Origin: an uncultured virus (IMG/VR IMGVR_UViG_3300025653_003319)
Taxonomy: Duplodnaviria; Heunggongvirae; Uroviricota; Caudoviricetes
Length of the DNA: 64,000 nt
Reading direction: 5' to 3' (one strand)
IMG/VR virus record: IMGVR_UViG_3300025653_003319
The translations under genes and the position numbers were made by a program. Below, in pieces: positions 10,201 through 62,094 of this stretch. Positions within the stretch are counted from its first letter, which is position 1. Each line of letters starts with the position of its first letter. The notes under the pieces are model-generated. The model saw nothing but the letters and a program-made list of their open reading frames with translations, was not told the DNA's origin and made no database searches.

Positions 10201-10803
10201 ACAGTAGCAGGTCCAACAGGACCAGCAGGTGCAACTGGACCAACAGGACCAGCAGGTAGTGGTAGTGCTATTACTGTACAAGACGAAGGTTCATCATTAG
10301 CAACAGCGGCTTCAACTCTTAATTTTGTAGGTTCGGGTGTTGTTGCATCTGGATCAGGCGCAACTAAAACAATTACAATTAGCGGTGGCGGTGGCGGCGC
10401 AGTAACACGTGGTAACACATACGAAAGATTAAAATTAAATTATAACACATCAGGCGAATTAACAAGTATATCAAATGTCACAGCAGGCATTAATGCTACA
10501 ACAATTACAAGTGCCGCAGGTGCTGAATTAGAAGTTCAATTCACAGGATTTGATTATCCGCCAGTAGCAATTATGGCTCATGGTTATCAGTATGCTTCAA
10601 ACAAGTATAGCATGAACGCAGTAAGCGGAGACTGGACTACTAGAACTGTAGACGGTGGTGGAAGTAGCGGATCACCAACAGCATTTGGTAGTTTCTCTAC
10701 AGATGCTAATGTTGACTTAAAAGTATCAGAAGCCATTACAGGAGCAAGTAGATCGTTTGGAACAAGCACCCATGCTTGGATAACGTTTGTGATGGCGGAG
10801 TAA
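7288..10803 (+). CDS. collagen-like tail/virion fibre protein
   Basis: 1171 aa, G/S/T/A-rich; [12 protein letters not shown] motif; repeated 'DTLNxxxGxxxxxTAxxxTDTITI' units; long Gly-X-Y tract. Confidence 0.85.
9181..10260 (+). repeat. Gly-X-Y collagen-like coding repeat with internal duplications
   Basis: Continuous GGN-NNN-NNN periodicity; near-exact ~60-nt duplication (ggaccagcaggaccacaaggagacaaaggagatactggtgctgatagtacagtagcaggacca) at about 9640 and 9742. Confidence 0.9.
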
Positions 10804-20792: not shown

Positions 20793-21053
20793 ATGAGTCT
20801 GACTATAGAAAAGGTATATTTATTTGACATGCAATGGACAGATGATGCTGACTATGAGCACATCTTTGAAGATAGGTTGCATGACACAATGATTCCTTTC
20901 TTTGCATTTGGTGAAGAAGCAACCTTTTCTAAAGAAGTAGACTTTGAAAGCAGTTATAAACCAGTTGCAAAAGTATATGCAAAGTTTATAACAGAGGCAA
21001 GCAAATATAAATTTATGTTAAAATATTCGGACAAATTAAATGAGTTACGTTGA
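20793..21053 (+). CDS. hypothetical protein
   Basis: 86-aa ORF overlapping the polymerase start. Confidence 0.65.
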   Translation: MSLTIEKVYLFDMQWTDDADYEHIFEDRLHDTMIPFFAFGEEATFSKEVDFESSYKPVAKVYAKFITEASKYKFMLKYSDKLNELR

Positions 21054-23745
21054 CGCAGTTTTTGAACAGAACAAAGGCATAGTAAGAGTAGTCGAGCGAA
21101 CAAAAGAAGGCGAACGTAAGATCATTGATCACCCTATGCGGTACTACTTTTATGTAGATGATCCAAAAGGCAAACAGCATAGTGTATTCGGTGACCCAGT
21201 TAGCAAGATTACAGCAAACAACTGGAAAGACTTTAAACGCAATGTAGCACTATATCAAAACAAACAAACATACGAAAGCGACCTAAAGCCTGTTAATAGA
21301 GTATTAGCAGATCATTACTTGGGTGTTGATGCACCAGACTTACACAAATGCTTTTTTGATATTGAGGTAGACTTTGACCCTGAAAGAGGTTATAGTTCTC
21401 CTGAAGATGCATTTATGCCTATCACTAGTATCAGTGTTTACTTAGACTGGATGGATAAAATAGTATGTTTAGCAGTTCCACCTAAAACACTTAATTGGGA
21501 ACAAGCACAAAAGATTGCAGATAATGTAGGCGATACAATACTATTTGGTGGCGAGAAAGCAATGTTAGATGCTTTCCTTAGCCTCATTGATGATGCTGAT
21601 ATACTAAGTGGTTGGAACAGTGAAGGTTATGATATTCCTTATACCGTAAACAGAATTATCAAAGTACTAGGTAAAAGCGAAACAAGGCGTCTGTGTTTAC
21701 TTGATAAGAATATTGTTAAAAGAGAATACATCAATCACGGTAGAGAAACACAAACATATGATCTAGTAGGTCGTGTGCATTTAGACTATATGCAACTGTA
21801 TAGAAAATACAACTACGAAGAACGCCATAGTTATAGACTAGACTACATTGGCGAAATGGAAGTAGGTGAAAAGAAGGTTGTATATGATGGTTCGCTTGAT
21901 AGACTTTACAATCATGACTTTGAATTGTTTTTAGAATACAATATTCAAGACACAATGCTACTTAAAAAGTTAGACGACAAGTTACAATTTATTAGTCTTG
22001 CTAGTGAGATTGCTCATCAGAATACAGTATTACTTCCAGTAACAATGGGAGCGGTACAAACAATTGACTCTGCTATTATCAATGAAGCACACAGACGCGG
22101 TATGGTTATACCAGATAGAAAGCGAAACAAAGATTCTGAGAATCCATGGGGGAATACAGTTGCAGGTGCCTATGTGGCATTTCCTAAGAAAGGTATGCAT
22201 GAATGGATAGGATCAATGGATATAAACAGTCTGTATCCAAGTGTTATTAGAGCACTGAATATGGCTCCTGAAACTATTGTTGGGCAACTAAGACAAGAGT
22301 ACACAGACAAAGAAATTACAGAAAAAATGCAAATTGAGAAGAAGTCATTTGCAGATGCCTGGGCAGGTAAGTTCGGTACAAATGAATATGAAATGGTAAT
22401 GGCTAAAGATATTGATAAGCCACTTATATTAGATTTAGAAGATAAAAGAGAAGTTAGTGTCAAAGGTGCTGATGTATATAACATGCTGTTTAACAGTGAT
22501 GAGCCTTGGTGCATTAGTGCAAATGGTACTATATACAGAACAGATGTACAAGGTATTATACCAGGACTATTGGAGAGATGGTATGCAGAAAGACAAGAGT
22601 TACAGGCTAAAAAGAAAAAAGCAACAACGCCAGAAGACATAGCATTTTGGGATAAGCGACAGTTAGTCAGAAAGATTCTACTTAACAGTACATATGGTGC
22701 TATTTGTAATCCAGGTAGTAGGTTCTTTGACCACAGGATAGGTCAAAGTACTACACTTACTGGTCGTGCAATCACTAGACACATGGGAGCAGAGACAAAC
22801 AAAATGCTCACAGGCGAGTATGATCATACTGGAGATACAATAGTATATGGTGATACTGACTCAGTGTATTTTAGTGCTCATGAGATTAGTAAAAAGCAAG
22901 ACATTGAATTAGACATGGATAGTGCAATTAAATTATATGATACTATATCAGATACCGTTAGTGATTCTTTCCCTTTATTTGCAAAAAATTCATTTAACAT
23001 TTCAACTAGCCAAGGTAATATACTTAAAGCCGGCAGAGAAGTAGTTGGTAGAGCCGGCATCTTTATTACAAAGAAAAGATATGCTATTAATGTATTAGAT
23101 TTAGAAGGGTATCAACCCGAAGGTGGTAAACTTAAAGTAATGGGGTTAGACCTTAAGAGGTCAGATACTCCAGAGTTTGTGCAAGACTTTTTATCAGACA
23201 TATTAGGGCAAACACTAAATGGCGATGGTGAAACAAAGGTTTTAGCAAATGTTAGAGAGTTTAAGAAAGAGTTTAAAGCAATGGACCCTTGGCGTAAAGG
23301 TATGCCAAAACGTGTAAACAACTTAACATACTACACAGAAGCATATAATAAAGCATTTAGTATGAACAAAAGTGCTAGTTTATACAAGTTAGAAAAACTC
23401 AAAGACGAAAAGAAAATAATGATCCCCGGGCATGTTAGAGCAAGTATTAATTGGAATAATATGCTAAAAGCAAATAGCGATCAATACAGTATGCAAATAA
23501 CAGATGGTATGAAAGTTATTGTATGCAGGCTTAAAAGTAATGCTATGGGATATACTAGTATTGCATATCCAACAGATGAAATGCATATACCAGAATGGTT
23601 TAAACAACTACCCTTTGATGAAGATTCAATGGAAGAAGCAGTTGTTGATAAGAAAGTAGAAAACTTATTGAATGTACTTAAATGGGATTTGTCAGCAACA
23701 GATACCAGCAATACATTCCATAGTTTATTTAATTTTAATGATTAA
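21040..23745 (+). CDS. DNA polymerase, family B (T4 gp43-like) with 3'-5' exonuclease
   Basis: ExoI FFDIEVD, ExoII GWNSEGYD, motif A SMDINSLYPS, motif B KILLNSTYG, motif C YGDTDS. Confidence 0.96.
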   Translation: MSYVDAVFEQNKGIVRVVERTKEGERKIIDHPMRYYFYVDDPKGKQHSVFGDPVSKITANNWKDFKRNVALYQNKQTYESDLKPVNRVLADHYLGVDAPDLHKCFFDIEVDFDPERGYSSPEDAFMPITSISVYLDWMDKIVCLAVPPKTLNWEQAQKIADNVGDTILFGGEKAMLDAFLSLIDDADILSGWNSEGYDIPYTVNRIIKVLGKSETRRLCLLDKNIVKREYINHGRETQTYDLVGRVHLDYMQLYRKYNYEERHSYRLDYIGEMEVGEKKVVYDGSLDRLYNHDFELFLEYNIQDTMLLKKLDDKLQFISLASEIAHQNTVLLPVTMGAVQTIDSAIINEAHRRGMVIPDRKRNKDSENPWGNTVAGAYVAFPKKGMHEWIGSMDINSLYPSVIRALNMAPETIVGQLRQEYTDKEITEKMQIEKKSFADAWAGKFGTNEYEMVMAKDIDKPLILDLEDKREVSVKGADVYNMLFNSDEPWCISANGTIYRTDVQGIIPGLLERWYAERQELQAKKKKATTPEDIAFWDKRQLVRKILLNSTYGAICNPGSRFFDHRIGQSTTLTGRAITRHMGAETNKMLTGEYDHTGDTIVYGDTDSVYFSAHEISKKQDIELDMDSAIKLYDTISDTVSDSFPLFAKNSFNISTSQGNILKAGREVVGRAGIFITKKRYAINVLDLEGYQPEGGKLKVMGLDLKRSDTPEFVQDFLSDILGQTLNGDGETKVLANVREFKKEFKAMDPWRKGMPKRVNNLTYYTEAYNKAFSMNKSASLYKLEKLKDEKKIMIPGHVRASINWNNMLKANSDQYSMQITDGMKVIVCRLKSNAMGYTSIAYPTDEMHIPEWFKQLPFDEDSMEEAVVDKKVENLLNVLKWDLSATDTSNTFHSLFNFND

Positions 23746-23835: not shown

Positions 23836-24579
23836 ATGATAAAAGATATATTTAAAGACATTCTAAGGCACACCCACGCCTTAGGCTTTATTGAACAGGT
23901 TAAAATTAGTGGTACTGCTGAAAGTACAACTATAGAGGCCATGGATGCAGACAAAACTGTTATCCTGCAAGGTAAACTACACAATCCTGTAGCAGACTTT
24001 GTAGACCAAACAGTAGGTCTTAGTAGAATGAGTGTACTAGATGGATACTTAAAGTTTCCAGGATTTGTAGATGAAGGTTCTACTGTAAATGTAGAAACAC
24101 AAAGCAGGAATGGAGACGATATTCCTGTACAGATTAGTTTCACAAGTGCAGAAGGACACACAGGTAGTTATAGATTTATGTTAGCAGATGTTATTAATCA
24201 GCAACTAAAATCTGTTACAATGAAAGAGATACCATGGGACGTTACTATTACACCGTCACAGAAGAACTTAAAAGACTTAGGTTACTTCAATGGTGTGTTA
24301 GGTGGCTTTGAACCAGTGTTTTCTCCAAGTACAGAAGATGGTGCTTTATATTTTAGCATTGGTGAAGGTGCCGGTGATAAAGGTAAACTTCCTATTAATA
24401 ATAATGTCGAAGGCGAACTGTCTGGCAACTGGAAATGGGAAATAGACAAAGCATTAAGTATTCTAAGACTAAGCGATAGTGCAAATTGTACTGTTAGTTT
24501 TGCTAACGCAGGAGCAATGCAAATTGTGATTGACAGTGGCTTAGGCGAATACAAATATATATTACCTGCTAAGAGTTAA
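23836..24579 (+). CDS. sliding-clamp-like protein (gp45/PCNA-like)
   Basis: 247 aa, acidic, directly after polB; alternating beta/alpha pattern ending YKYILPA. Confidence 0.6.
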   Translation: MIKDIFKDILRHTHALGFIEQVKISGTAESTTIEAMDADKTVILQGKLHNPVADFVDQTVGLSRMSVLDGYLKFPGFVDEGSTVNVETQSRNGDDIPVQISFTSAEGHTGSYRFMLADVINQQLKSVTMKEIPWDVTITPSQKNLKDLGYFNGVLGGFEPVFSPSTEDGALYFSIGEGAGDKGKLPINNNVEGELSGNWKWEIDKALSILRLSDSANCTVSFANAGAMQIVIDSGLGEYKYILPAKS

Positions 24580-24581: not shown

Positions 24582-26123
24582 ATGACAGAAGATTTAGGAA
24601 AGAAGCACCAGGATTGGGCAGTTTACCTGCCCGCCATTAGTGGGTTCTATGTAACGCAATTACAGAAAATGGATGCTAATCCAAGTGAATGGAGATGCCC
24701 TGAAGGCTTTGAAAAAGGCACACAAGGTATGAACTTCCTTGATCCTGAGAACAGTTATTATCATTACCCATGGGGTCTTTACTCAGGTGGACATGCTCAC
24801 TTAGATCCTGTTAAAAGCGATGAACGTGAGCCAATGATACAAGGTAGAGATCGTAGTAAAACTATGATACTAGGAGACTCAGGTGGTTTCCAACTTGCCA
24901 CAGGTGTTATTAAAATGGACTGGAGCAATGCTAAAGATCCTAATGATCCTGTAAGAACAGCATTTTGTAATAAGATACTTACATGGTTAGAGCATACAGC
25001 AGACTGGAGTATGACATTAGATGTTCCTGCTTTTGCGGCAGTTGGTAAACTAAGCGAAAGGACAGGACTTACAGAATTTCAAGACACACTAGATATCAGT
25101 CTACTTAATTTAGACTATTTTATGAGGAACAGAACACCAGGTGCTACTAAGTTTTTAAATGTGTTAAGTGGTAGTAACGAAGAGAATAGCAAAATATGGT
25201 ATGATGCAGTAAAGCATTTTTCCAATAAAAGTTTTGTGCAAGAAGCATACGGTGATGAGAATAGAACCTTAGAGGGTTACGCATTCGCTGGTATCAATAT
25301 GAAGCACATGTATAGTGTGCTAAGTAGATTGTTGGATCTTAGAGAAGACGGTTTACTTGAAGGCAAGGATTGGATACACTTCTTAGGTACTGGACGCCTT
25401 AATTGGGCATGTCACCTCACTAGTATCCAAAGACAGTTGAGAAAGCACGACAATCCTAATATAACACTTTCATTTGATGCGGCATCGCCTTTTGTTAATA
25501 CAGCATATGGCCAGACTTACACACATAATGAGTACAGAGCCAAGCGATTTGGATACTTTATGGATAGAGCATTCGATAACAAAGACATGAAAGGATCAAA
25601 GATGCCTATGCCTTTTGCACATTCCCCTATAATGAGTAGACTAACTGTTGGTGATATCTGTGTTTTAGGACATGGAGATACAAACAGGAATGGTAAAGAA
25701 TGCACAACTAGTTGGGACACACTAAGTTATGCTCTTTACATGGGTCATAGTGTTTATAATCATATTACAGCAACGCAAGAAGCAAATAGACTTGCTGATA
25801 TGGAAAAATATAGAACACCTACACATTGGAAGAACTGGAAGAAGGTAAAAGGTAGTAGTGTAAGCAATGAAACTTCACCTTATGTACCTGGTACTATTTT
25901 AATGTTTGATAGTTTTGCAGAAGAAGTGTTAGATCCTAATAACACAAATGCAAGGCAAATGTTAGAAGATAACAAAGAGTTTTTAAAAGAGATTAGTTTC
26001 TCAGATGGTAGTGCGGAACAATCTACATTTGGTGCTTTATTTGAAACTGACGAATACGAGTCAGGTGACAGTGAAGCAGATATGCAAGAAGACATAATGA
26101 GGGCAGATTTCGATGGCGAATAA
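24582..26123 (+). CDS. tRNA-guanine-transglycosylase-like (DpdA-like) base-exchange enzyme
   Basis: ILGDSGGFQ, TLDVP, WIHFLG and SFDAASP match the catalytic segments of the TGT fold; FolE, QueD and QueE genes nearby. Confidence 0.75.
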   Translation: MTEDLGKKHQDWAVYLPAISGFYVTQLQKMDANPSEWRCPEGFEKGTQGMNFLDPENSYYHYPWGLYSGGHAHLDPVKSDEREPMIQGRDRSKTMILGDSGGFQLATGVIKMDWSNAKDPNDPVRTAFCNKILTWLEHTADWSMTLDVPAFAAVGKLSERTGLTEFQDTLDISLLNLDYFMRNRTPGATKFLNVLSGSNEENSKIWYDAVKHFSNKSFVQEAYGDENRTLEGYAFAGINMKHMYSVLSRLLDLREDGLLEGKDWIHFLGTGRLNWACHLTSIQRQLRKHDNPNITLSFDAASPFVNTAYGQTYTHNEYRAKRFGYFMDRAFDNKDMKGSKMPMPFAHSPIMSRLTVGDICVLGHGDTNRNGKECTTSWDTLSYALYMGHSVYNHITATQEANRLADMEKYRTPTHWKNWKKVKGSSVSNETSPYVPGTILMFDSFAEEVLDPNNTNARQMLEDNKEFLKEISFSDGSAEQSTFGALFETDEYESGDSEADMQEDIMRADFDGE

Positions 26124-26307
26124 AGCATACAGTGGCACATACACATACGAAGGACATGATGTACAATTTCATATACTAGAGAATGGTGCTGAAATGGAAA
26201 TACTAGAGACTAAAGATGGTAAAACTACACCTACTAAAGTTGTAAACATTGATGAAGGTGCAGATTATCAAGATCAATTAATTAAGTGGGGTTATACGAG
26301 TTACTAA
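26113..26307 (+). CDS. hypothetical protein
   Basis: 64-aa ORF overlapping its neighbours. Confidence 0.6.
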   Translation: MANKAYSGTYTYEGHDVQFHILENGAEMEILETKDGKTTPTKVVNIDEGADYQDQLIKWGYTSY

Positions 26308-26813
26308 TGAATAGAGAAGGTCACGAGGATACAAAGTTTTTTATAGGCACTGAAGTAGAGCATACGCCTGCTTATAGTCAAAAGACTTTGTTTGTAGTTG
26401 GGTATCAACCAAAAGAGGAAATACTTGCTAGGGCACTTAATAGCGGTTGTCCGCACATTTATCTAGGTGCTAACCAAAGTTTTAATCCACCAACTGAAAA
26501 AGATTGGCAGGGGTGGGACAAACTAGTTACAAGTCTTTTAAAAGATGATATTTGGATTACACTAGACTTTGATGTAACTTTAGCAGAACAAGTATTAGAA
26601 TGTGGTTGGACTGAGTATAGTACATTTATACCAATGATAAGTGTTAAGTTGCCTTACATTAATCAATTCAATTACAATGCGACACTCAAACTAGATGACA
26701 AAGACTTTAAAGCAACTAATCCAGGAGTGTGGTGTCATAGTTTACATGAACTACAAGACAGGAAGGCTTTCACAGACTGGACCAAATATACCAAAGACGA
26801 GGTGATAGATTGA
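26307..26813 (+). CDS. hypothetical protein linked to the TGT-like gene
   Basis: FFIGTEVEHTPAY...HIYLGANQSF...TNPGVWCH; start probably the ATG at 26307 (TAATG coupling) rather than GTG 26286. Confidence 0.7.
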   Translation: MNREGHEDTKFFIGTEVEHTPAYSQKTLFVVGYQPKEEILARALNSGCPHIYLGANQSFNPPTEKDWQGWDKLVTSLLKDDIWITLDFDVTLAEQVLECGWTEYSTFIPMISVKLPYINQFNYNATLKLDDKDFKATNPGVWCHSLHELQDRKAFTDWTKYTKDEVID

Positions 26814-26815
26814 GG

Positions 26816-26844
26816 TTGACATTGGCCACAAAATATGATATAAT
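26816..26844 (+). promoter_or_regulatory. sigma70-type promoter
   Basis: TTGACA-17-TATAAT upstream of the glycosyltransferase. Confidence 0.8.
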
Positions 26845-26864
26845 TAACATTATGGAGAATCTAT

Positions 26865-28088
26865 ATGAGTGATGGAGTTTATGATATAAACATGCGTAAA
26901 CTGTTCTACATGGGACTAGAGTCTTATGAAGCAAGGTATACATTACAATTACAAGAATGGAACGAGCGTGTTTTTAAAGAGCATGGCATTGATTATGAAA
27001 TTATCGAAGGCGAAGAATTAGATAACAGCAAAGCAATCGTTACAGGTAGTGTGTTAGACGCACATGGTAGAAGTTATTACAGTCTAAGTCAAACAATGAA
27101 CTTAGTACAGAAAATGAAGAACGGTGAAATTACTAGCGATGATGTTATCTTTTATGAAGATATGTTTACACCAGGCTTAGAATGTTTGCCTTACATAATG
27201 GATCAATCTCCACCTGAATACAGACCTAAAGTATTCTTAAGATTCTTAGCACAAACAACAGACCCAGATGACTTCCTTATTAGAGAAGGCATGTTTGATT
27301 GGATGCGTAGATACGAGCAAATGGTAGATGAATTTGTTACAGGTATATGTGTAGCAAGTGAAGAATTTGTTGCACACTTAAGAACAGCAGGATTTAAAAA
27401 GCCTATATATGTAACAGGTTTGCCGTTTGGTAAAAGCGAAGTACAAGAGCGGGTTCCTAATCCTAAGCCATTGAAAGAAAGAACAAAGAGAGTTGGTTTT
27501 GCGGCACGTTGGGATGATGAGAAGCAACCACACTTTTATATGGACTTAGCAGAAGCCTATTACAAAATAGATCCTGAAGTTGAGTTTGCTATATTTTGTG
27601 GACACCCAGAACTAAAAAGTTCAGATCAAGAGTATGTTGATAGAGCATTAGAATTACAAGCAGGCAATACTGCTAACTTTAAGATCTACACAGGCTTAAA
27701 GAAAAACGATTACTATAACTTACTAGCAGACAGTCAAGTATTATTTAATTGTGCCTTGCAAGACTGGGTAAGCAATACAGTAAGCGAAGCAGATACATTA
27801 GGTACACTTACATTATATCCAGCATATAGAAGTTTCCCAGAAGTGTTTGCTAACAATGGCAGACACTTGTACGTTCCTTGGAGCATGGAAGACTGTATTA
27901 GTAAACTGTCTAATATGTTTGATGATATTAATACAGATAACCTAAGCGAATATAGTTTAGGTAAGATAAGCGATTATCAAAATGGTACAATAGAAAGAAC
28001 ACTTAAAGTAATATCTGGTTTAGGTCTAGAGCAACAAAGAGACAGACAGCATTACAGAAGACAAGTAGCAAAGGCAAAATATGATTGA
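26865..28088 (+). CDS. GT-B fold glycosyltransferase (GT4-like)
   Basis: VGFAARWDDEKQP and FNCALQDWVSNTVSEA...YRSFPEV resemble the GT4 R...K and E-x7-E regions. Confidence 0.75.
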   Translation: MSDGVYDINMRKLFYMGLESYEARYTLQLQEWNERVFKEHGIDYEIIEGEELDNSKAIVTGSVLDAHGRSYYSLSQTMNLVQKMKNGEITSDDVIFYEDMFTPGLECLPYIMDQSPPEYRPKVFLRFLAQTTDPDDFLIREGMFDWMRRYEQMVDEFVTGICVASEEFVAHLRTAGFKKPIYVTGLPFGKSEVQERVPNPKPLKERTKRVGFAARWDDEKQPHFYMDLAEAYYKIDPEVEFAIFCGHPELKSSDQEYVDRALELQAGNTANFKIYTGLKKNDYYNLLADSQVLFNCALQDWVSNTVSEADTLGTLTLYPAYRSFPEVFANNGRHLYVPWSMEDCISKLSNMFDDINTDNLSEYSLGKISDYQNGTIERTLKVISGLGLEQQRDRQHYRRQVAKAKYD

Positions 28089-28281
28089 GATTATCCAGAT
28101 AGCATTTGGTATAGTATTTCTTTGCTTCATGGCATATGGCTGTTGGATTAGTAGTGTTATGTTAAGTGAAAGAAGTATTCTAAGAAAGTATACTGGCGAA
28201 TATTATGACTTTGATATAGATGAAAAATTAAAAGAAATGGGTACTACTAGACAAGAAGTATTAAGAAGGGATTCACAATGA
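28081..28281 (+). CDS. small membrane protein
   Basis: 66 aa with an N-terminal TM helix. Confidence 0.6.
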   Translation: MIEIIQIAFGIVFLCFMAYGCWISSVMLSERSILRKYTGEYYDFDIDEKLKEMGTTRQEVLRRDSQ

Positions 28282-28940
28282 GTAACATTAAAAAGGCTGT
28301 ATTATTTTTTATTTTAGCAATAGGATTATTGCTGATAACGTTACCAGCAAATGCAACAGGCAATGCCAAGTTTGGTTGGACACAGATTAATAGTGATACA
28401 ACTACATTAAAATTCAGTGTAGATCACGAGTGGGATAATCCTATTATTGACTATGTAGTTGAAACTGACTATGTTTACAAAGAACAAGAAGATGTAGTTA
28501 AAATGGATAAGTTTAGCATAATTGGTAAAGCAAATAAAGACATCACATCTAAGTATTATGCATTCAGTGTAACAAGTTATGACAGTGATAAATTAAGAGC
28601 ATCTGGAGATAGAATAGTAACTGGTGGTGGCCTTGGTATAAAAGTTTTTAGAAATGACAATTGGAAAATAAGTCACGAAACGTCAGTTGCATACTTAACT
28701 ACTGATGAAGTGGACGAAGCAATACTTAGAAATAGTTTATGGATATTTTATAAACTAAATGACAGTTTAAATATTACCAACAAACTACTTAATGAAACTG
28801 GAACAGATACATATTTGCGTAATGAAACAGCAATCAATTACAGTTTAAATGATAAAGTGTCGCTGGGATTTAGTAATACATACACTGAAGACCCGGTTAA
28901 CAATAATGTATTAAGTGTTACAATAGGTGTTAAGTGGTAA
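28278..28940 (+). CDS. outer-membrane beta-barrel protein (DUF481/YdiY-like)
   Basis: Sec signal ending ANA; amphipathic beta strands; GGGLG; C-terminal aromatic residue (SVTIGVKW). Confidence 0.75.
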   Translation: MSNIKKAVLFFILAIGLLLITLPANATGNAKFGWTQINSDTTTLKFSVDHEWDNPIIDYVVETDYVYKEQEDVVKMDKFSIIGKANKDITSKYYAFSVTSYDSDKLRASGDRIVTGGGLGIKVFRNDNWKISHETSVAYLTTDEVDEAILRNSLWIFYKLNDSLNITNKLLNETGTDTYLRNETAINYSLNDKVSLGFSNTYTEDPVNNNVLSVTIGVKW

Positions 28941-29042
28941 TAATATTAATTAAAGAACATAGTCCAATTGGACATGTAGTTTTGAAGGAAGTACCTTTAG
29001 AATTAAACAACGAAGGTAATACTTCATAACGAGGAAGAAAGA

Positions 29043-29240
29043 ATGGCGACAGGAAAAGTAAAATGGTTTGATACCAGCAAAGGTTTTGGATTTATCACAC
29101 CAGACGATGGCAGTAAAGATGTGTTTGCACATCATACAGCAATACAAGGTGAGGGATATAAATCTCTATCAGAGAACCAAGAAGTAACATTTGATGTTGA
29201 GCAAGGTGCGAAAGGACCACAGGCAACAAATATAGTATAA
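29043..29240 (+). CDS. csp: cold-shock protein (CspA family)
   Basis: [25 protein letters not shown] (RNP1/RNP2)...[10 protein letters not shown]. Confidence 0.96.
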
Positions 29241-29250
29241 GGAGTATTGT

Positions 29251-29688
29251 ATGAGAAGTATTTGGGTAACATTTAGTAAAGAAGGTATACATAAGTATCC
29301 TGCGGCATTAGAAGATCCTAATCTAGCAACTGGCGACGAGTATGACGTTAGTTTTCTAGGTTATCCTCATAGACACACATTCCACTTTAAAGTGTGGATT
29401 GAGGTGTTTCATGATGACAGAGACATTGAATTCATACAATTTAAGAGATGGTTGGAGAATCAGTATAGAGATGCTATTCTTCAACTTGATTTTAAGTCAT
29501 GCGAAATGATAGCAGATGACTTAGCAGAAACGATACAGGACAAATATCCTGGTCGTTACATAAAGATTTCAGTAGCCGAAGATAATGAAAACGGTTGCGA
29601 AATGGAGTATCCATTAGAAGATGTGGATGGTCCATACTTTGGAGATACAGACGCAATAGACGATGTATTTGATAATTTGTTGAAATGA
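29251..29688 (+). CDS. queD: QueD/PTPS-like T-fold protein
   Basis: H...HRH metal ligands, DRDIEF, SCEMIA and VAEDNENG match the 6-carboxytetrahydropterin synthase layout; FolE and QueE nearby. Confidence 0.65.
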   Translation: MRSIWVTFSKEGIHKYPAALEDPNLATGDEYDVSFLGYPHRHTFHFKVWIEVFHDDRDIEFIQFKRWLENQYRDAILQLDFKSCEMIADDLAETIQDKYPGRYIKISVAEDNENGCEMEYPLEDVDGPYFGDTDAIDDVFDNLLK

Positions 29689-30260
29689 ATAGTGTAATTG
29701 GTATTAATGGTTCTATACATCCGCTATACAGCGGTGCTTATATAGAAAGAAATAATCTTGGTATTTTACATTTACCAAAAAATGCTTCTTCGTCAATAAA
29801 ACGTGCATTAAAACCAATTACTAATAAAACCGAAATAATTTTAAAAGATTTTACTATAGATAAATTTTGTGTAATATTAAGAGATCCAGTAGAACGATTT
29901 ATAAGTGCTGTAAATATGTATTTGCACCCTAGAACGATTACATCTAATTATGTAGATATTAGAAAAGAGGATAACAAATATAGTATATTTAAAAGCAACG
30001 ATGCCCACTTTTTTTCGCAAAATACTTTTATTGAGGGTTTAGATAAAAGTAAAATTGATTTCTTTTGGCTAAACAATAATATAATCAATGATTTAAATGA
30101 TTTTTATGATTTAAATATGGAGCAAAATTACATAAATCGATTTAGTAAAATAATAAAAAGTGTTGACATTGACATTATCAAAGATGTCTATGTAAAAGAT
30201 TATGAGTTAATTGATTCTGTTAAGTTTGTTAATAAGGTAGACAATGGAAACATCAATTGA
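29685..30260 (+). CDS. sulfotransferase-family-2-like protein
   Basis: HLPKNASSS (5'-PSB), LRDPVERFISA (3'-PB), DAHF..Q, Y..DY.L. Confidence 0.7.
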   Translation: MNSVIGINGSIHPLYSGAYIERNNLGILHLPKNASSSIKRALKPITNKTEIILKDFTIDKFCVILRDPVERFISAVNMYLHPRTITSNYVDIRKEDNKYSIFKSNDAHFFSQNTFIEGLDKSKIDFFWLNNNIINDLNDFYDLNMEQNYINRFSKIIKSVDIDIIKDVYVKDYELIDSVKFVNKVDNGNIN

Positions 30261-30834
30261 TAACAAATATACAAATTGTATGCCAGGTGATTGTGTATAC
30301 AACAAAAAAGAGGACATTGCATTCTTGTTAGTACCTAAATGTGCTACAAGTGTAATTAGAGATTTTGAAAAAACAAACAACGACTGGACTAGAATTACAT
30401 TATGGGAAGAAGAAAAATGCCCAAGTAGGTTTATTGTGATATTAAGAGATCCAATAGAAAGATTTATCAGTACTGTTAATATGTATTTAGGTTGGAGAGA
30501 AGTAGAACCTCAGACAAACTATGTTACTTTTAATTTTAGTGATGAAGGATTTTATTTAGAATCTAACGATGCACATTTTAAGCCACAAAAAAGTTTCTTA
30601 ATTGATATGTTTGACATTATAAAAAAATATAATGCCAATCCTATCATAGATTATTTTTATTATAACAAAAATATTTATAATCAAATCAATGATGAATATG
30701 GTTTCAACATTGACGCAACAAAACGTTTGATGCAATCAATAGATATTGTTAATAACGTTAATGAATCAGTAGTTAGGCAGGCATATAGAGCCGATTACGA
30801 TTTAATTAAATCTGTACAATTTAAAAACATATAG
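30244..30834 (+). CDS. sulfotransferase-family-2-like protein (tandem paralog)
   Basis: LVPKCATSV, LRDPIERFIST, SNDAHFKPQ, YRADYDLI; clearly paralogous to 29685-30260. Confidence 0.7.
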   Translation: METSIDNKYTNCMPGDCVYNKKEDIAFLLVPKCATSVIRDFEKTNNDWTRITLWEEEKCPSRFIVILRDPIERFISTVNMYLGWREVEPQTNYVTFNFSDEGFYLESNDAHFKPQKSFLIDMFDIIKKYNANPIIDYFYYNKNIYNQINDEYGFNIDATKRLMQSIDIVNNVNESVVRQAYRADYDLIKSVQFKNI

Positions 30835-30843
30835 GAGATAATT

Positions 30844-31026
30844 ATGACAGAGACACATTTAAAAATCAAAGCACTCTTTGAAGAGTATGTAAGTGAAAAC
30901 GAAAAATTTAAAGAAGGCCAAGGCGTAAAAGCATCGGCAACAAGAGCAAGGAAGGCATTAATGGAAATTACTAAACTAGCGAAAGTTAGAAGAGGTGAGA
31001 TTCAAGACGCAAAAAATAATGCCTAA
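30844..31026 (+). CDS. small basic histone-H1-like (Hc1-family) DNA-binding protein
   Basis: EKF.EG.GVKASATRARKALMEITKLAKVRR; AGGAG SD. Confidence 0.7.
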   Translation: MTETHLKIKALFEEYVSENEKFKEGQGVKASATRARKALMEITKLAKVRRGEIQDAKNNA

Positions 31027-31183
31027 CATTAAACGTATTCCTTTCACTGAAAAGAGAGGAAACAAGGAAACAGTAATTCAACCTACTAACTCCAAACCAG
31101 CAGGATCTTTAACAGATGTTGTTGATGAGGTAGAAGATTGGGGAGGATTACTAGATCCAAAGGAGGAAAATAAAGATGAGTGA
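31019..31183 (+). CDS. hypothetical small protein
   Basis: 54 aa from ATG 31019, overlapping both neighbours. Confidence 0.5.
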   Translation: MPNIKRIPFTEKRGNKETVIQPTNSKPAGSLTDVVDEVEDWGGLLDPKEENKDE

Positions 31184-32171
31184 TAAACCAACAGTTGTTA
31201 TTACAGGTGGTCTTGGTTTTATTGGTGCACAGGTAAGTAAAACTTTTGCTAACAATGGATATGACGTAATTGTTATAGATTCCAATACGAGTAGGAAGTG
31301 GGCATTACCAGAAGGTGCTACTTTATTTCCACATGAATTTCAGGCTACAACTACGGCAGGCATATTAGAAATGATGAAACCACAAGCGGTTATTCATTTA
31401 GCGGCAAGCCATGTTGTTCCTGATAGTATAATTGATCCTGGCAAGTATTATAAAAATAATGTGTCAGGTACTCAAACATTACTAGATATGTGTGTTAAAG
31501 CAGGAGTTAAGAACTTTATCTTTAGCGGTTCTAGTAGTGTGTATGGTGAAAGAGAAAGCAGAGAACCATTTGCTGAGACTCTTACACCAATGCCAATGAG
31601 TCCGTATGCAATGAGTAAGTACATGACAGAACTTATGTTAGAAGATTACAGCAAAGCATACGGGTTAAATTATATCAGTACAAGATATTTTAATGCCGCT
31701 GGTGCAGACCCAGAAGGTAAAAATGGTTATACACAAGAACCAGCAACTCATGTAATGCCTATCATTATTGATAAAATTACAAATGACGAGGTATTTAATA
31801 TTTGTGGCGATGATTACGATACTAAAGACGGTACTTGCATTAGAGATTACTGTCATATACAAGACATAGCAAATGCTAAACTAAAAGCAGTAGAGCATTT
31901 AAGCAATGACGGTGAAAGTGGTATTGTAAACTTAGGCTCTGGTACAGGATTTAGTATTCATGATTTAATAATTTCAGCACAAAACGTTGTTGGAAAAAGT
32001 TTAAAATATGAAGTAGGTCCTAGAAGAGCAGGAGACCCATCGTACTTATGTGGAGATATTTCTAAAGCCAAAACATTATTAGATTGGGAACCAACATATT
32101 CATTAGATGATATGTTTGCACATTCTAAGTTTTGGGTAGACAATAAAAATAAGGTTATTAAGAATAAATGA
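31176..32171 (+). CDS. galE: UDP-glucose 4-epimerase
   Basis: TGGLGFIG, HLAA, SPYAMSK (YxxxK), RYFNAAGA, DGTCIRDYCH, NLGSGTG, RRAGDP. Confidence 0.92.
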   Translation: MSDKPTVVITGGLGFIGAQVSKTFANNGYDVIVIDSNTSRKWALPEGATLFPHEFQATTTAGILEMMKPQAVIHLAASHVVPDSIIDPGKYYKNNVSGTQTLLDMCVKAGVKNFIFSGSSSVYGERESREPFAETLTPMPMSPYAMSKYMTELMLEDYSKAYGLNYISTRYFNAAGADPEGKNGYTQEPATHVMPIIIDKITNDEVFNICGDDYDTKDGTCIRDYCHIQDIANAKLKAVEHLSNDGESGIVNLGSGTGFSIHDLIISAQNVVGKSLKYEVGPRRAGDPSYLCGDISKAKTLLDWEPTYSLDDMFAHSKFWVDNKNKVIKNK

Positions 32172-32740
32172 TAGGAAAACGTAAATCTGTAAATGTTATT
32201 AATAGAACAGGCACCCCAGTTATGGCAGTTGTGGGTGCGATCGGTAAAGGCGATGAGTTAAATTTAATTAAAAAGAAATTTCCTATAACCGACAAGGAAA
32301 TAATAGATGTTATACATTTCTTTTGCAATAACGTAGATTTTGACCAAAGTCATTTATCTGTGTTCAAAGCAGTTGAATTTGATACTGATAAAATATCAGT
32401 GCAACTTGACGAGATATCTGCAGAATTTTACTTAAGAATGTTAAACAGATATATTTTTAAATATAAGAAACTAACTGACTTTGATGATATGCTGGCAGAC
32501 GGTCTTAAAATGACATTTGGTGTTGTTTTAAAACTAAGCAATAAGTTACTTGACGAAACATATAATATATCAGGAGATAGCGATGTGTTAAATCCTGTAT
32601 TAGATGCTGGTTTCTATAAAGAACTTAAATTGTTTTTAGAGTTTACTAAGAGAAACATAGTTGAAGAAGCCGCTAAAATTAACTTAAATGATTTTGATAA
32701 AGTAGAATTTATCCTATTAGAAAATGATTTTGAAAGATAG
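32168..32740 (+). CDS. hypothetical protein with DUF433-like N-terminal HTH
   Basis: TGTPVMAVV..IGKG....IKKKFPITDKEIIDVIHF resembles DUF433. Confidence 0.5.
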   Translation: MIGKRKSVNVINRTGTPVMAVVGAIGKGDELNLIKKKFPITDKEIIDVIHFFCNNVDFDQSHLSVFKAVEFDTDKISVQLDEISAEFYLRMLNRYIFKYKKLTDFDDMLADGLKMTFGVVLKLSNKLLDETYNISGDSDVLNPVLDAGFYKELKLFLEFTKRNIVEEAAKINLNDFDKVEFILLENDFER

Positions 32741-32741
32741 G

Positions 32742-32770
32742 TTGACTTCAACCAGAAAAAGTGGTATAAT
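32742..32770 (+). promoter_or_regulatory. sigma70-type promoter, leaderless
   Basis: TTGACT-17-TATAAT with TG extension; ATG 32777 is 6 nt downstream. Confidence 0.75.
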
Positions 32771-32776
32771 AAAAGC

Positions 32777-33265
32777 ATGGAAAAACTATATTATAGTTGG
32801 GACGATTTAAACAGAGATTGTAGAATTATTGTGCGAGAAATGGCACACGAAAGTTACAAGCCTGAAGTTATTATTGGTCCCGGTAGAGGAGCATATCCGT
32901 TTGGAGTAATGATGAGTCATTACTTCGAAGTGCCATTCGAAGCATTCAGATGGCAAACAAGAGACGGAGCAATCGAAGATTCAGAGACATTAAGACACAT
33001 TTTATCTAAATACAATGATAAACGTGTTTTAGTCGTAGATGATATTAATGATACAGGAACAACACTACAAGGTATTGACAATGTTATCAGAAACTATGTA
33101 GCAGATAATAGCAACATGATGCAACATGCACATCAAGATATTATGTTTTCTACATTGTTTGATAAAGAATCTAGTAGTTTTAATAACGTTGAATTTACTG
33201 CTAATAATGTATTACCAGATCAAGAACGTTGGATAGTGTTTCCGTATGAGGAGTGGTGGAGATGA
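32777..33265 (+). CDS. type I phosphoribosyltransferase (Gpt/xanthine-guanine PRT-like)
   Basis: PRPP-binding VLVVDDINDTGTT; N-terminal YSWDD; C-terminal WIVFPYE as in Gpt. Confidence 0.88.
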   Translation: MEKLYYSWDDLNRDCRIIVREMAHESYKPEVIIGPGRGAYPFGVMMSHYFEVPFEAFRWQTRDGAIEDSETLRHILSKYNDKRVLVVDDINDTGTTLQGIDNVIRNYVADNSNMMQHAHQDIMFSTLFDKESSSFNNVEFTANNVLPDQERWIVFPYEEWWR

Positions 33266-33456
33266 GAACAGCAGAAATAGTAAACATTGATGGTACTGGT
33301 TATATAGTACATCTGTTAAAGAACGGTAATGCATTTGGTAAGATTGATGTTAGAGATAAATCAATTCACTATGCACAAGACGTAGCAGAGAATTGGGAAA
33401 ATGGAATTTTGAGGGACGACAATGAGTACATTAAAAAGCCTGAGCAATCATCTTAA
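33262..33456 (+). CDS. hypothetical protein
   Basis: Short ORF coupled to the PRTase gene (ATGA). Confidence 0.55.
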   Translation: MRTAEIVNIDGTGYIVHLLKNGNAFGKIDVRDKSIHYAQDVAENWENGILRDDNEYIKKPEQSS

Positions 33457-33622
33457 AGTCTTAGAAACAAGACACAGAGAGTTAGATAAAAAAATTGCTG
33501 ATGATTACGATCATCATATGGATGATACAGCATTAGCAAACGAAAAGATTGAAAAACTTAATCTTAAAAGAGAAATTGAAGAACTGAAGGAACAAATTAA
33601 GGAGTTAGAAGATGGCAGTTAG
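33422..33622 (+). CDS. DUF465/YdcH-like coiled-coil protein
   Basis: L..L...HRELDKKI...KIEKLNLKREI. Confidence 0.7.
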   Translation: MSTLKSLSNHLKVLETRHRELDKKIADDYDHHMDDTALANEKIEKLNLKREIEELKEQIKELEDGS

Positions 33623-34301
33623 TGATACAATTAAACAAAGGCTACAGGAAGCCGGCGATAGGTTTTGGGCAGGAGATAATATCTCAGCACATATTAAAGA
33701 AGGTGAGAAAGAACAACTGATTGACGAACTTGCAGTTAAGTTTGAAGATGTCTTGCAAGGTCTTGTTATTGATACTGAGAACGATCCTAACAGCAACGGT
33801 ACAGGCAGACGCCTTGCTAAGATGTATATCAACGAACTAATGAGTGGTAGGTATGAAACTATACCAGCCGCTACTGCTTTCCCTAATGACAGCGAAGATA
33901 GATACGAAGGCATGTTGGTTGTGCGTAGTGAACTTACAAGTATGTGTTCACATCATCACCAGATTGTTAGAGGTGTAGCATACATTGGTATTATTGCCGC
34001 AGACAAACTAATTGGATTAAGCAAGTACACAAGAATCGCACAATGGTGTGCGAGTAGAGGTACACTACAAGAAGAACTTGCTAACGACATTGTTAGAGAA
34101 ATACAAAAGGCAACTGGTGCCGATCACTTAGGTGTTTATGTACAAGCCACACACGGTTGTGTAGAGAACAGAGGTGTTAAGGCACATAGCAGTCTTACAC
34201 AAACAACTGTTCTTAAAGGTGCGTTCAAAGATGACGCAGGTACAAAGAAAGAGTTTATGGACAACATCAAATTACAACAACAATATTCTTGCGATAAGTA
34301 A
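33612..34301 (+). CDS. folE: GTP cyclohydrolase I
   Basis: T..RLAKMY, SMCSHH, LIGLSK..R, LQEEL, ATHGCVENRGV. Confidence 0.93.
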   Translation: MAVSDTIKQRLQEAGDRFWAGDNISAHIKEGEKEQLIDELAVKFEDVLQGLVIDTENDPNSNGTGRRLAKMYINELMSGRYETIPAATAFPNDSEDRYEGMLVVRSELTSMCSHHHQIVRGVAYIGIIAADKLIGLSKYTRIAQWCASRGTLQEELANDIVREIQKATGADHLGVYVQATHGCVENRGVKAHSSLTQTTVLKGAFKDDAGTKKEFMDNIKLQQQYSCDK

Positions 34302-35191
34302 TGACATTAAAGTATAGCGAAACATTTTATTCAGCACAAGGGGAAGGCCAGTATGTAGGTATCCCTAGTCTGTGGATGAGATTCTTCCTATGCAATTTAC
34401 AATGTAATGGTTTTGGTCAAAGCGATCCTACTGATCCTAGCACATATGATTTACCATATGAGAAGTTAGATATCACAGACATTACTAATGTATTTGATTT
34501 GCCTGTGTTTGAAAAAGGTTGTGACAGCAGTTATACTTGGAGCAAGAAATATAAGCATTTGATTACTGATAAGACTGTAGACGAGGCTGTAGACGAACTT
34601 ACAGCACTACTACCGCATGGTAAGTTTGTACACCCAGTTACACAACAAAACGCACACATGGTCTTTACAGGCGGCGAGCCAATGCTTAAAAACACACAGC
34701 CTGGTATGATGCAAGTTATAGAAGAATTTAAACGCAGAAACAATCAACCTATGAATGTTACTGTGGAAACAAATGGCACAAAGCCTATTACAGACGAGTT
34801 TGCTGAATACATACAACGTGAATATCCAGCATGGGCTAATGGTTCTGAATGGTACTGGAGTTTAAGTCCTAAACTGTGGAGTACTGCTGGTGAGAAGAAC
34901 AAGAAAGCAATCAAGCCAGAAGTAATAGGCAGATATGCTGAAGTAAGTCCACATGGTCAATTGAAGTATGTGGTAAATGGCACAGATGAAAGTTGGAGAG
35001 AAGTAGAAGAACACACTAAAGCATTTAGAGATGCCGGTTGCGACTTCCCTGTATGGATTATGGGAGTTGGCGGCACCTTTGAAGGCCTAGTACAAACAGA
35101 GGCAAGTATAGCCGACGAAGCCATACAACGTGGCTACAATTATACAAGCAGAGTTCACGTACACATATACGGTAACGCAATAGGAAAATAG
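34301..35191 (+). CDS. queE: 7-carboxy-7-deazaguanine synthase (radical SAM)
   Basis: SETFYSAQGEG, R...CNLQC...CDSSY, FTGGEP, VETNGT, LSPK, RVHV. Confidence 0.9.
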   Translation: MTLKYSETFYSAQGEGQYVGIPSLWMRFFLCNLQCNGFGQSDPTDPSTYDLPYEKLDITDITNVFDLPVFEKGCDSSYTWSKKYKHLITDKTVDEAVDELTALLPHGKFVHPVTQQNAHMVFTGGEPMLKNTQPGMMQVIEEFKRRNNQPMNVTVETNGTKPITDEFAEYIQREYPAWANGSEWYWSLSPKLWSTAGEKNKKAIKPEVIGRYAEVSPHGQLKYVVNGTDESWREVEEHTKAFRDAGCDFPVWIMGVGGTFEGLVQTEASIADEAIQRGYNYTSRVHVHIYGNAIGK

Positions 35192-51333: not shown

Positions 51334-51606
51334 ATGGGACAATACGACGAAGTAGTAGAAAGGCAAAGGCAATTACTTGCCGCGGAGGAATGGGCAAAAG
51401 GTGTTAAATCCATACATGCTCATAGTTTAAGTTCAATGTGGTACGACGATCATCCGGAGCATACATCAGAAGGCAAGTATGTAACCGATGTCGAATACAA
51501 TAACGGAGTAGTTGAAAGACTTCTATCAGATGGTACAAAACACTTATTTGGCAAAGCACTAACAGGTGACTATCTAATACAAGAGTATACAAGACACTCT
51601 GCATGA
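51334..51606 (+). CDS. hypothetical protein
   Basis: 90 aa; TATAAATA lies 5 nt upstream of the ATG. Confidence 0.65.
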   Translation: MGQYDEVVERQRQLLAAEEWAKGVKSIHAHSLSSMWYDDHPEHTSEGKYVTDVEYNNGVVERLLSDGTKHLFGKALTGDYLIQEYTRHSA

Positions 51607-52844: not shown

Positions 52845-52910
52845 AAAGCAAAACAAATCTCTGATAAATATGAGTGTACTAGAAATTAGTACCGAGACAT
52901 AAAACAGGAG

Positions 52911-54239: not shown

Positions 54240-55030
54240 ACATAGATCAACAAATACTTGATCACTTATTCCATAAGTGGGGTAGTGACAGTGAAAAACT
54301 TGCACTAAACGAGCAGTATCGCTATACCCCTCCCTACCCTACTTTGGCTTTAGATGATTTTATACCTTATAATGTAGCAAAATTACTTTACGAGGAAAGC
54401 CAAACCATACCTAAAAAGTATTGGACAACATTTACAAGAGCAGACAGTTATATGGAAGAGTGTAAAGACTTAACTGAGGCTCCTGTAGCACGTGGTGTTG
54501 TTAGTGCATTACACAGCAGAGAGTTTTTAACATGGCTCAGCCAAGTGTGTGATGTACAACATCTATTACCAGACCCATACTTAACTGGTGCTGGTTATAT
54601 GAAAAGTTACAAAGGCGACAGTTTAAAAATACACTCAGACTTTAATTGGAACGAAGAGTGCCAAACACACAGAGCATTAAGTTTAATATTATACTTCACA
54701 CCAGACTGGGATGAAGCATGGCACGGTGATTTACAGTTTTGGGATTTTGATAAAACAGAAAAGATAGTAAGTTATCCACCTAAGATGGGCAACGTGGTTG
54801 TGTGGAAATATCACAAACGTGGTTTCCATGGACACCCAAATCCAATTGAATGTCCTGAGGATAAATTTAGAGTTGGCTTTAGAACATTTTATTATATAGC
54901 AGACAGTAAACACGATTGGAGAGATCCTCCACACAAAAGTTTATACTGGTATGACAAAGAAAAGAATCAACCTTACCATTTAGAAAACGAATACGGACAC
55001 GGTAAATTGGATGACAACGGTGAAAAATAA
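54236..55030 (+). CDS. 2OG-Fe(II) oxygenase (prolyl-hydroxylase-like)
   Basis: PYP...DDF, LKIHSDFN (HxD), W...WHGDLQFW, FHGH...R. Confidence 0.85.
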   Translation: MNIDQQILDHLFHKWGSDSEKLALNEQYRYTPPYPTLALDDFIPYNVAKLLYEESQTIPKKYWTTFTRADSYMEECKDLTEAPVARGVVSALHSREFLTWLSQVCDVQHLLPDPYLTGAGYMKSYKGDSLKIHSDFNWNEECQTHRALSLILYFTPDWDEAWHGDLQFWDFDKTEKIVSYPPKMGNVVVWKYHKRGFHGHPNPIECPEDKFRVGFRTFYYIADSKHDWRDPPHKSLYWYDKEKNQPYHLENEYGHGKLDDNGEK

Positions 55031-57150: not shown

Positions 57151-57151
57151 C

Positions 57152-57334
57152 ATGGCAAAGAATAGTAAAAGCAAACCAGAGATAGGAGATCGCATAGAAC
57201 ACACTTGTAGTCTTAATGGCAAATTTGAAGGCAAGGTTGTAGAACTATTAGCAATGCAATTTGTATATGAGACTAAAGAAGGTCATCGTAGATTTTGCTT
57301 GTTTAGAGAATTATGGAAAAAGATAGATGAATAA
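57152..57334 (+). CDS. hypothetical protein
   Basis: 60 aa, SH3-like IGDRIEH...GKVVEL. Confidence 0.6.
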   Translation: MAKNSKSKPEIGDRIEHTCSLNGKFEGKVVELLAMQFVYETKEGHRRFCLFRELWKKIDE

Positions 57335-62081: not shown

Positions 62082-62094
62082 CATAAATACTGTT

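Follow-up and report, generated by a model that had tools for sequence, protein, structure and literature searches.

What base does the uncultured tailed virus of IMG/VR record IMGVR_UViG_3300025653_003319 (Caudoviricetes) put into its DNA, and is that base decorated with a sugar? The question is raised by positions 24582..35191 of a 64,000-nt stretch of this virus (the whole stretch is called the window below), in which a gene for a protein with the fold of tRNA guanine transglycosylases (TGTs) stands close to a glycosyltransferase (GT) gene and to genes of 7-deazaguanine synthesis. An earlier note on the region had proposed a base derived from 7-carboxy-7-deazaguanine (CDG) that is glycosylated and possibly sulfated. 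Of this phage, our analysis covered the window; its 52 open reading frames (ORFs) were scanned against Pfam, the PHROG and NCBIfam libraries were searched too, and 502 six-frame segments were scanned for motifs and profiles. The results indicated that the DNA of this phage very probably contains a deazaguanine. For the fuller reading, in which a jumbo phage related to Wroclawvirus uses this region to modify its DNA against restriction and probably adds a sugar, we see an even chance. The GT step, not described in the literature searched, is the new part of this reading; the QueC-less core has previously been published as a prediction.

The 513-aa (amino acid) TGT-like protein had no match in Pfam, PHROG or NCBIfam, and no usable match in the PDB, whether searched by sequence or by profile. 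Its AlphaFold model scored 92 in the predicted local distance difference test (pLDDT), and all Foldseek matches listed for this model belonged to the TGT family, DpdA 7ui4 included, with a best E value of 2e-6. In 107 homologues D99 (in a DSGG motif), H266 and D299 were invariant and D147 was at least 90% conserved; we take D99, D147 and D299 to be equivalent to D102, D156 and D280 of TGT, the catalytic and guanine-binding aspartates looked for being those in DSGG, in LD and ahead of the last barrel strand. The C-terminal CxCxxC zinc site of bacterial or eukaryotic tRNA TGTs was found in none of 142 homologues, the window protein having five scattered Cys residues only. Model, conservation and motif scan agreed with the initial description of a TGT-fold protein with catalytic Asp motifs and without CxCxxC, and the protein is a DpdA-type DNA guanine transglycosylase. 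At least 5,259 homologues were present among 8,000 candidates scored. The motif NVLQG reads NVLSG in the window protein (residue 197), a position held by Ser in 28 and by Gln in 111 of the 142 homologues; this variant may alter the base pocket.

Among 20 phage records matching the window DpdA, 11 were Wroclawvirus-like Pseudomonas jumbo phages, at ∼49.5% identity. The orthologue in PA5oct, QCG76197 (49.5% identical), is given as DpdA3 in Data S1 of Cui et al. 2023 (PMC10516641). In hhalign comparisons with the window DpdA profile, the proteins of ACP17 and BUDD, which are tabulated as DpdA2, reached 96–97% and the DpdA3 of phiST 64%. The label DpdA3 is therefore loose, since the profile fits the DpdA2-tabulated proteins better. 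A further mark of the DpdA3 subfamily is that deoxyguanosine in virion DNA is replaced throughout; the resistance of PA5oct has been read as confined to GA/GG motifs (PMC12191111). The DpdAs of ACP17, BUDD and BUCT-ZZ01 were remote homologues of the window protein (hhalign 95–97%).

The tail of DpdA (approximately residues 455–500) carries the motif F-x-x-[LFI]-F, which was found in 89 of 133 homologues compared with 4.2 in shuffles and at most three in eight neighbouring families. A matching motif ends 80 of 111 family B DNA polymerase (polB) proteins, and among the plus-strand ORFs of at least 100 aa in the window only polB and DpdA have it. Because this tail copies the C-terminal motif of polB, we infer that DpdA would dock on the sliding clamp through it. 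The DpdAs of ACP17, BUCT-ZZ01 and BUDD end in an S/T-L-D/E-x-x-F motif, which presumably resembles the T4-type clamp-binding peptide.

FolE, QueD and QueE convert guanosine triphosphate (GTP) to CDG. In the window, FolE, a QueE-like radical S-adenosylmethionine (SAM) protein, a Gpt-like phosphoribosyltransferase (PRTase) and GalE were each recognised by the family libraries, in line with the first annotation. QueE has an atypical Cx3Cx38C motif, compared with CxxxCxxC as the radical SAM cluster pattern, 38 residues being inserted ahead of the third cluster Cys; this spacer was 34–50 residues long in 68 of 69 homologues. QueC, QueF and canonical QueD were found neither in the 52 ORFs by Pfam nor in the 502 six-frame segments, so that the reported lack of QueC and QueF was borne out for the window; for ArcS, no Pfam match in the 52 ORFs was the sole check made.

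The 145-aa product of 29251–29688, previously called QueD-like, proved to be DpdL instead of QueD. Pfam did not recognise it, with no PF01242 match, and it carries LxxxHRHxF, the DpdL signature according to Cui et al. (PMC10516641). It matched the DpdL of ACP17 (E 9e-38) and CGPG_00067 of phiST (E 1e-5), and its L36–F44 motif, H14, S83, E85 and E110, which cover the signature, metal histidines and pocket residues, aligned with the DpdLs of both phages. LxxxHRHxF was kept in 144 of 148 homologues, and the CxxxHGH motif of QueD was present in none of the 148. Cui et al. predict DpdL to be a CDG decarboxylase. The idea of a CDG-derived base made without QueC thus survived as far as a QueC-less, DNA-directed deazaguanine system is concerned; with DpdL in place of the supposed QueD, 7-deazaguanine formed by decarboxylation is a likelier base than CDG itself. 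A route with this core has already been published, and 7-deazaguanine in DNA (as deoxy-7-deazaguanosine, dDG) is its predicted product. As reported by Cui et al. (PMC10516641), dDG replaces deoxyguanosine (dG) in phiST DNA, three DpdL phages of the phiST group contained dDG and not the CDG nucleoside (dCDG), and PA5oct is tabulated with FolE, QueD, QueE, DpdL and DpdA3 and without QueC.

In cultured genomes with GT and DpdL, QueD was found in six of six and QueC above the cut-off in none; QueD was present in two of three near-complete uncultured relatives and a QueC-like singleton in one. Close IMG/VR contigs reach 25% completeness at most; in 4 of 14 such contigs QueC matched weakly, and these matches were set aside, the one examined being an NAD synthetase (E 1.4e-43). 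Such a phage NAD synthetase, an ATP-dependent carboxyl-to-amide enzyme, is encoded at 1291–2280 of the close relative L047; that it acts on CDG is speculation. DpdL fused to an N-terminal region of ∼390 or ∼290 aa without Pfam match was observed in Vibrio phage Bakedbeans (L038, 9215–10366) and Chryseobacterium phage MA9V-3 (L042, 9395–10276), respectively.

The window GT matched Pfam PF00534 at E 0.001 only; its homologues in BUDD (6.8e-12) and BCSR5 (9.5e-11) were above the cut-off, and its Atlas neighbours were GT1/GT4 families at 0.97–1.00. The donor site features R215, K220 and D300-x7-E308, with R215 and K220 invariant and E308 nearly so; we take the Arg and Lys to be phosphate binders and E/D-x7-E to be the motif of the nucleotide-sugar domain. 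With this motif set present and homologues passing PF00534, the original GT-B assignment held. In 16 diverse GTs, R24, D99, D136, E151, R215, K220 and Y283 were invariant, and an N-terminal E-x4-RYT motif occurred in 15. A PDB search yielded nothing usable (best E 0.03, a GT4 enzyme), and the GT profile had no sequence match to solved DNA glucosyltransferases. The family is large, with at least 7,871 homologues among 8,000 candidates scored. The window GT belongs to a clade (clade I) with L128 and D300, where other GTs have H and E. Clade I and clade II alleles are 21–27% identical, occupy the same slot and alternate on the DpdA tree; on this quick tree the GT clade changed five times, at least three of them forced by well-supported branches. 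BUCT-ZZ01, the sole cultured carrier of clade I, has a GT 55% identical to that of the window.

The linkage between GT and deazaguanine genes was examined in two sets. The DpdA-centred set of 106 loci (26 from a first scan and the 80 best of 598 from a second, with one locus in both, plus the window) gave 57 clusters at 90% identity, of which 40 with at least 5 kb downstream were kept and 17 that were too short were dropped. These 40 loci contained GT in 39, DpdL in 39, the clamp gene in 39, a 168-aa protein gene (at 26307 in the window) in 37, QueE in 31, FolE in 28, PRTase in 27, GalE in 18, sulfotransferase in 2 and QueC in none, and in the sole locus without GT, the genes for GT, DpdL and FolE lie together elsewhere in that genome. 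For the GT-centred set, the best 80 of 408 GT loci gave 67 clusters, and the 35 with 5 kb on both sides, all of clade I, contained DpdL in 35, a DpdA in 34, GalE in 33, sulfotransferase in 8 and QueC in none. The co-occurrence of GT with the TGT-like gene was thus observed as expected from the earlier note, and it extended to unrelated phages and to bacterial islands. Independent support outside the lineage came from ACP17, BUDD, BCSR5 and BUCT-ZZ01, in which DpdL, GT and a remote DpdA are clustered, the three being neighbours in ACP17, BUDD and BUCT-ZZ01.

Cellular genome records contributed 25 loci, many apparently binned phage contigs. In nine alphaproteobacterial loci among the 25, a DpdA relative (30–31% identical in the five compared) adjoins GT with no FolE, QueD or QueE nearby; four have DpdL and five do not. 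In the six of these nine loci that were examined, the gene adjoining GT belonged to one family, with a Pfam Vut_1 match in four, above the cut-off in three; YhhQ/Vut_1 proteins presumably carry preQ0/preQ1. Full QueC was found in four of five island host genomes searched. The islands (L260, L264, L265, L267, L270 and L271) consist of the DpdA relative, the YhhQ-like gene, GT and optionally DpdL, near integrases or resolvases, and are possibly a cellular or mobile-element form of DNA modification. Island L267 adjoins a GmrSD nuclease. In Xanthomonas phage PhiXhv-12 (L168, 5821–10707), Gat-QueC, a PIG-L deacetylase, a remote GT homologue and an oxidoreductase stand in a row, a candidate for an amino-sugar on an archaeosine-type base; a PIG-L deacetylase also adjoins GT in BCSR5.

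Taken together, the following pathway can be proposed. FolE and QueE, together with a QueD from another part of the genome or from the host, would make CDG from GTP, and DpdL would decarboxylate it to 7-deazaguanine, as predicted by Cui et al. DpdA, presumably docked on the clamp, would swap guanine in new DNA for 7-deazaguanine, and the PRTase might salvage the guanine so freed. The GT-B enzyme would finally glycosylate the deazaguanine with a nucleotide sugar as donor, a step suggested by the gene linkage; that the GT does act on deazaguanine we hold to be somewhat more probable than the opposite. As the acceptor we favour the exocyclic N2 of the inserted base over C7, because E-x4-RYT homologues sit in islands without DpdL, where C7 of the inserted base is probably occupied. 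Since the TGT pocket binds N2 of the base, transfer after insertion is favoured. In a broader form, for which the chances again seem evenly divided, a widespread GT family of phages and islands would decorate DNA deazaguanines placed by clamp-docked DpdA with exchangeable sugars, galactose in the case of the window and N-acetyl- or amino-sugars in other cases, with PA5oct, Paride, ACP17 and BUCT-ZZ01 as cultured carriers and sugar alleles exchanged among lineages to evade modification-dependent nucleases.

As to the donor, local GalE was found at all 11 clade-I GT loci and at 7 of the 28 of clade II, and among 14 cultured genomes only BUCT-ZZ01 has full GalE. A Fisher p of 1.9e-5 for this association was discarded as inflated by kinship. 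After tree correction three independent pairs were left and the link was not significant (p 0.5), and one clade-II GT genome encodes GalE elsewhere. Galactose is therefore only a lead. The previously suggested supply of uridine diphosphate (UDP)-galactose by GalE stays plausible, with GalE at nearly all clade-I loci, and a GalE product such as UDP-galactose is most likely the donor of the clade-I GT; should the GT act on deazaguanine, a galacto-sugar falls slightly short of an even chance.

Together with these two donor results, a number of observations weigh against the sugar pathway. Within the lineage the clamp gene is as constant as GT, and as the sets come mostly from one lineage, the count of 39 of 40 reflects in part plain synteny. 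Only 6 of 12 cultured DpdL phages have GT; the other six, phiST among them, lack it genome-wide. Vibrio phage 2.275.O combines a DpdA of the window clade with QueC and QueF and has no GT, and the QueC-like singleton in one relative, 202 aa long, lies ∼125 kb from the locus. The polB-like tail was seen in none of 133 GTs. 7-Deazaguanine offers no hydroxyl acceptor, and the locus has no oxygenase. DpdL and DpdA expressed in E. coli yielded no dDG (PMC10516641), a failure for which the missing sugar step may account. In the available text of the END paper (PMC12191111), mass spectrometry concerned F8 and 14-1, not PA5oct, and in the literature searched we found no nucleoside analysis of any GT-bearing phage.

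Several other explanations were weighed against the sugar pathway. A plain dDG system as in phiST, with GT and GalE decorating virion proteins or the host surface or riding along in a replication operon, is unlikely yet has to be taken seriously: in phiST, which carries DpdL and DpdA3 and lacks GT, dDG has been measured, unrelated passengers lie in the span, and other glycan and tailoring genes lie at 46.6–63.8 kb of the window. However, GT stands beside DpdA in unrelated phage groups, its divergent alleles are exchanged in the same slot, and the bacterial islands have three or four genes including the YhhQ-like gene, with no virion genes in the six scanned. Were DpdL no simple decarboxylase, either CDG or a compound formed with the help of the 168-aa protein might be inserted or glycosylated, as the free base or on its C7 substituent, with no sulfate; an acyl glycoside, though, would be labile. 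This we judge quite improbable. The 168-aa companion has no homologue found in phiST, there are islands with DpdL and without QueE, CDG fits the modelled DpdL pocket, decarboxylation by DpdL is a prediction, and a DpdA2 inserts CDG at a low rate (PMC10516641); on the other hand, the conserved DpdL signature and the dDG of the phiST-group phages described above speak for decarboxylation.

In a pre-replicative route, the PRTase would make a deazaguanine nucleotide that polB incorporates, DpdA being secondary. The frequency of PRTase among the DpdA loci and the kinase-like and MazG-like genes beside DpdL in phiST fit such a route, which is nevertheless very unlikely, as DpdA is intact and has the polB-like tail, Pfam showed neither a kinase nor a dGTPase in the span, and PRTase is not near the cluster in ACP17, BUDD and BCSR5; moreover, the resistance of PA5oct DNA has been read as limited to GA/GG motifs (PMC12191111). 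Modification of tRNA instead of DNA by the TGT-fold protein is extremely unlikely. The top Foldseek rows were indeed tRNA TGTs, with DpdA 7ui4 at rank 13 and a nearly equal E value, but identity to tRNA TGTs was 12–14%, neither the Zn site nor a Pfam TGT match was present, the tail is polB-like, the orthologue is published as DpdA3 (PMC10516641), and five restriction enzymes are resisted by the DNA of PA5oct (PMC12191111).

Further sulfation of the sugar or base by the two sulfotransferase-fold proteins, as raised in the earlier note, was not upheld and is highly unlikely. Both ORFs are under the Pfam cut-off (E 0.003), yet retain both motifs that we take to form the site for 3′-phosphoadenosine-5′-phosphosulfate (PAPS), so their identification was upheld by motif and not by score. 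A related gene stands upstream of DpdA in 7 other loci of the 35 of clade I, compared with a genome-wide profile match in one of five large contigs. Against this, copy number varied even among 15 relatives that span the site with DpdA at least 94% identical (two genes in 9, one in 3, none in 3), only 2 of the 40 DpdA loci have such a gene, none is near the cluster in six GT-bearing cultured phages, and a third sulfotransferase lies 11 kb away in the window. The sulfotransferases are accessory and outside the core, with a possible weak tie.

The 168-aa protein had a model pLDDT of 91 and a homologue in the ACP17 cluster; Pfam gave no match, sequence and profile searches of the PDB nothing usable, and Foldseek no match at E ≤ 0.001. 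It was tried as a Cys-less QueE paralogue and rejected (Z 5.4–5.8 against a guide value of 8, over 121–128 residues, with three QueE structures; hhalign 0.7%); with Atlas matches at 0.84, the QueE likeness was kept as a lead only. A 'glycosylase' in the same slot of phage Phosso showed no match to it.

All ORFs named in the earlier note were found where it had placed them, on the plus strand and 3′ of polB and the clamp-like gene (Table 1). That gene list was right in what it named and had left out the genes for DUF481, cold-shock, Hc1 histone-like and 190-aa proteins; as these are interspersed, the region is not a tight operon. The passengers at 28278–31026 (DUF481, cold-shock and Hc1 histone-like) look host-like. 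Elsewhere in the window, 51603–63814 forms a second tailoring cluster (UDP-glucose dehydrogenase, 2-oxoglutarate (2OG)-Fe(II) oxygenase, aminotransferase, two radical SAM/SPASM proteins, carbamoyltransferase and unknowns), and the product of 7288–10803, 1171 aa long and containing collagen repeats, is probably a fibre.

Table 1. Genes of the deazaguanine region and its upstream context in the window
Feature	Coordinates	Strand	Evidence and remarks
Family B DNA polymerase (polB), context	21040..23745	+	Pfam PF00136 E 9.7e-39; C-terminal T-F-x-x-L-F motif
Putative sliding clamp, context	23836..24579	+	Match to phage Phosso sliding clamp beta E 3.7e-40; PHROG 12062, unknown function
DpdA-type DNA guanine transglycosylase, 513 aa	24582..26123	+	TGT fold, no Zn site, orthologue of PA5oct QCG76197
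Conserved 168-aa unknown	26307..26813	+	Alternative start GTG 26286; partial beta/alpha barrel; 37/40 DpdA loci
Clade-I GT-B glycosyltransferase (GT4-like), candidate for acting on deazaguanine	26865..28088	+	Pfam, motifs, co-occurrence
DUF481 protein, passenger	28278..28940	+	Pfam PF04338 E 3.5e-18; 2/40 DpdA loci
Cold-shock protein, passenger	29043..29240	+	Pfam CSD E 5.7e-30
DpdL, T-fold QueD paralogue, predicted CDG decarboxylase, 145 aa	29251..29688	+	LxxxHRHxF; 39/40 DpdA loci
Sulfotransferase-fold protein 1, accessory	29685..30260	+	Pfam PF03567 E 0.0036, under cut-off; variable among close relatives
Sulfotransferase-fold protein 2, accessory paralogue	30244..30834	+	Pfam PF03567 E 0.0026; E 2e-23 to protein 1
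Hc1 histone-H1-like protein, passenger	30844..31026	+	Pfam PF07432 E 7.4e-11
UDP-glucose 4-epimerase (GalE), may supply the GT donor	31176..32171	+	TIGR01179 322 bits vs cut-off 262
190-aa unknown, lineage-restricted	32168..32740	+	No Pfam match; 8/40 DpdA loci
Gpt-like purine phosphoribosyltransferase	32777..33265	+	Pfam PF00156 E 3.3e-13; 27/40 DpdA loci
FolE, GTP cyclohydrolase I	33612..34301	+	Pfam PF01227 E 3.7e-37; CSHH and HGC motifs
QueE, CDG synthase, atypical Cx3Cx38C	34301..35191	+	PHROG 2076 E 9.8e-52; under NCBIfam cut-offs

If the sugar step is real, a purine would join the pyrimidines that bear sugars in phage DNA, and a new DNA-labelling enzyme would be at hand. It would also name the G modification of PA5oct-like Pseudomonas jumbo phages, which are studied for therapy and are targets of END nucleases. 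The eight deazaguanine DNA bases in Cui et al. 2023 (PMC10516641) are all without a sugar, and no glycosylated deazaguanine in DNA was found in the literature searched, most subscription journals being outside its coverage.

Among known systems, the dDG system of phiST (Cui et al. 2023, PMC10516641) has FolE, QueE, DpdL with LxxxHRHxF, DpdA and the lack of QueC in common with the window. It differs in having a DpdA of 259 aa, against 513 aa in the window (the hhalign match covers 83 columns), in lacking a GT of the window family and a 168-aa homologue, and in having QueD, of which the window has none. PA5oct and Paride (Wroclawvirus) share the order polB, clamp, DpdA, GT, DpdL, GalE-like, PRTase and QueE with the window, whereas their GT is of another clade, clade II (E 6e-13), GalE is reduced to a remnant of 172 aa, the genes for FolE, QueD and the 168-aa protein are at other sites, and no sulfotransferases are nearby. 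Both are listed with DpdA3 and DpdL in Data S1 of Cui et al.; the GT gene QCG76198 of PA5oct, between dpdA and dpdL, goes undiscussed in the available text, 'glycosyl' occurring zero times in the main text and 'glycosyltransferase' zero times in the supplement (PMC10516641). ACP17 (Acidovorax), BUDD (Xanthomonas) and BCSR5 (Burkholderia) appear in the same Data S1 with DpdA2 and DpdL (PMC10516641). Like the window, these three and BUCT-ZZ01 (Synechococcus) have a cluster of DpdL, DpdA and the GT family, with canonical QueD in the genome and QueC not above the cut-off; they differ from it in belonging to other phage lineages and in their remote DpdAs.

The GT-B enzymes of T-even phages glucosylate 5-hydroxymethylcytosine in DNA. 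As in the pathway proposed for the window, a sugar is there placed after replication on a modified base as a counter-defence, the acceptor being a pyrimidine hydroxyl. Closer in reaction type is HuiG of huimycin synthesis, which adds N-acetylglucosamine (GlcNAc) from UDP-GlcNAc to a nitrogen of a preQ0-derived 7-deazapurine (bioRxiv 10.64898/2026.04.15.718813). HuiG makes a free secondary metabolite in Actinomycetota without DpdA and is likened to the window GT by its reaction only, and it indicates that N-glycosylation of a 7-deazapurine by a GT is feasible.

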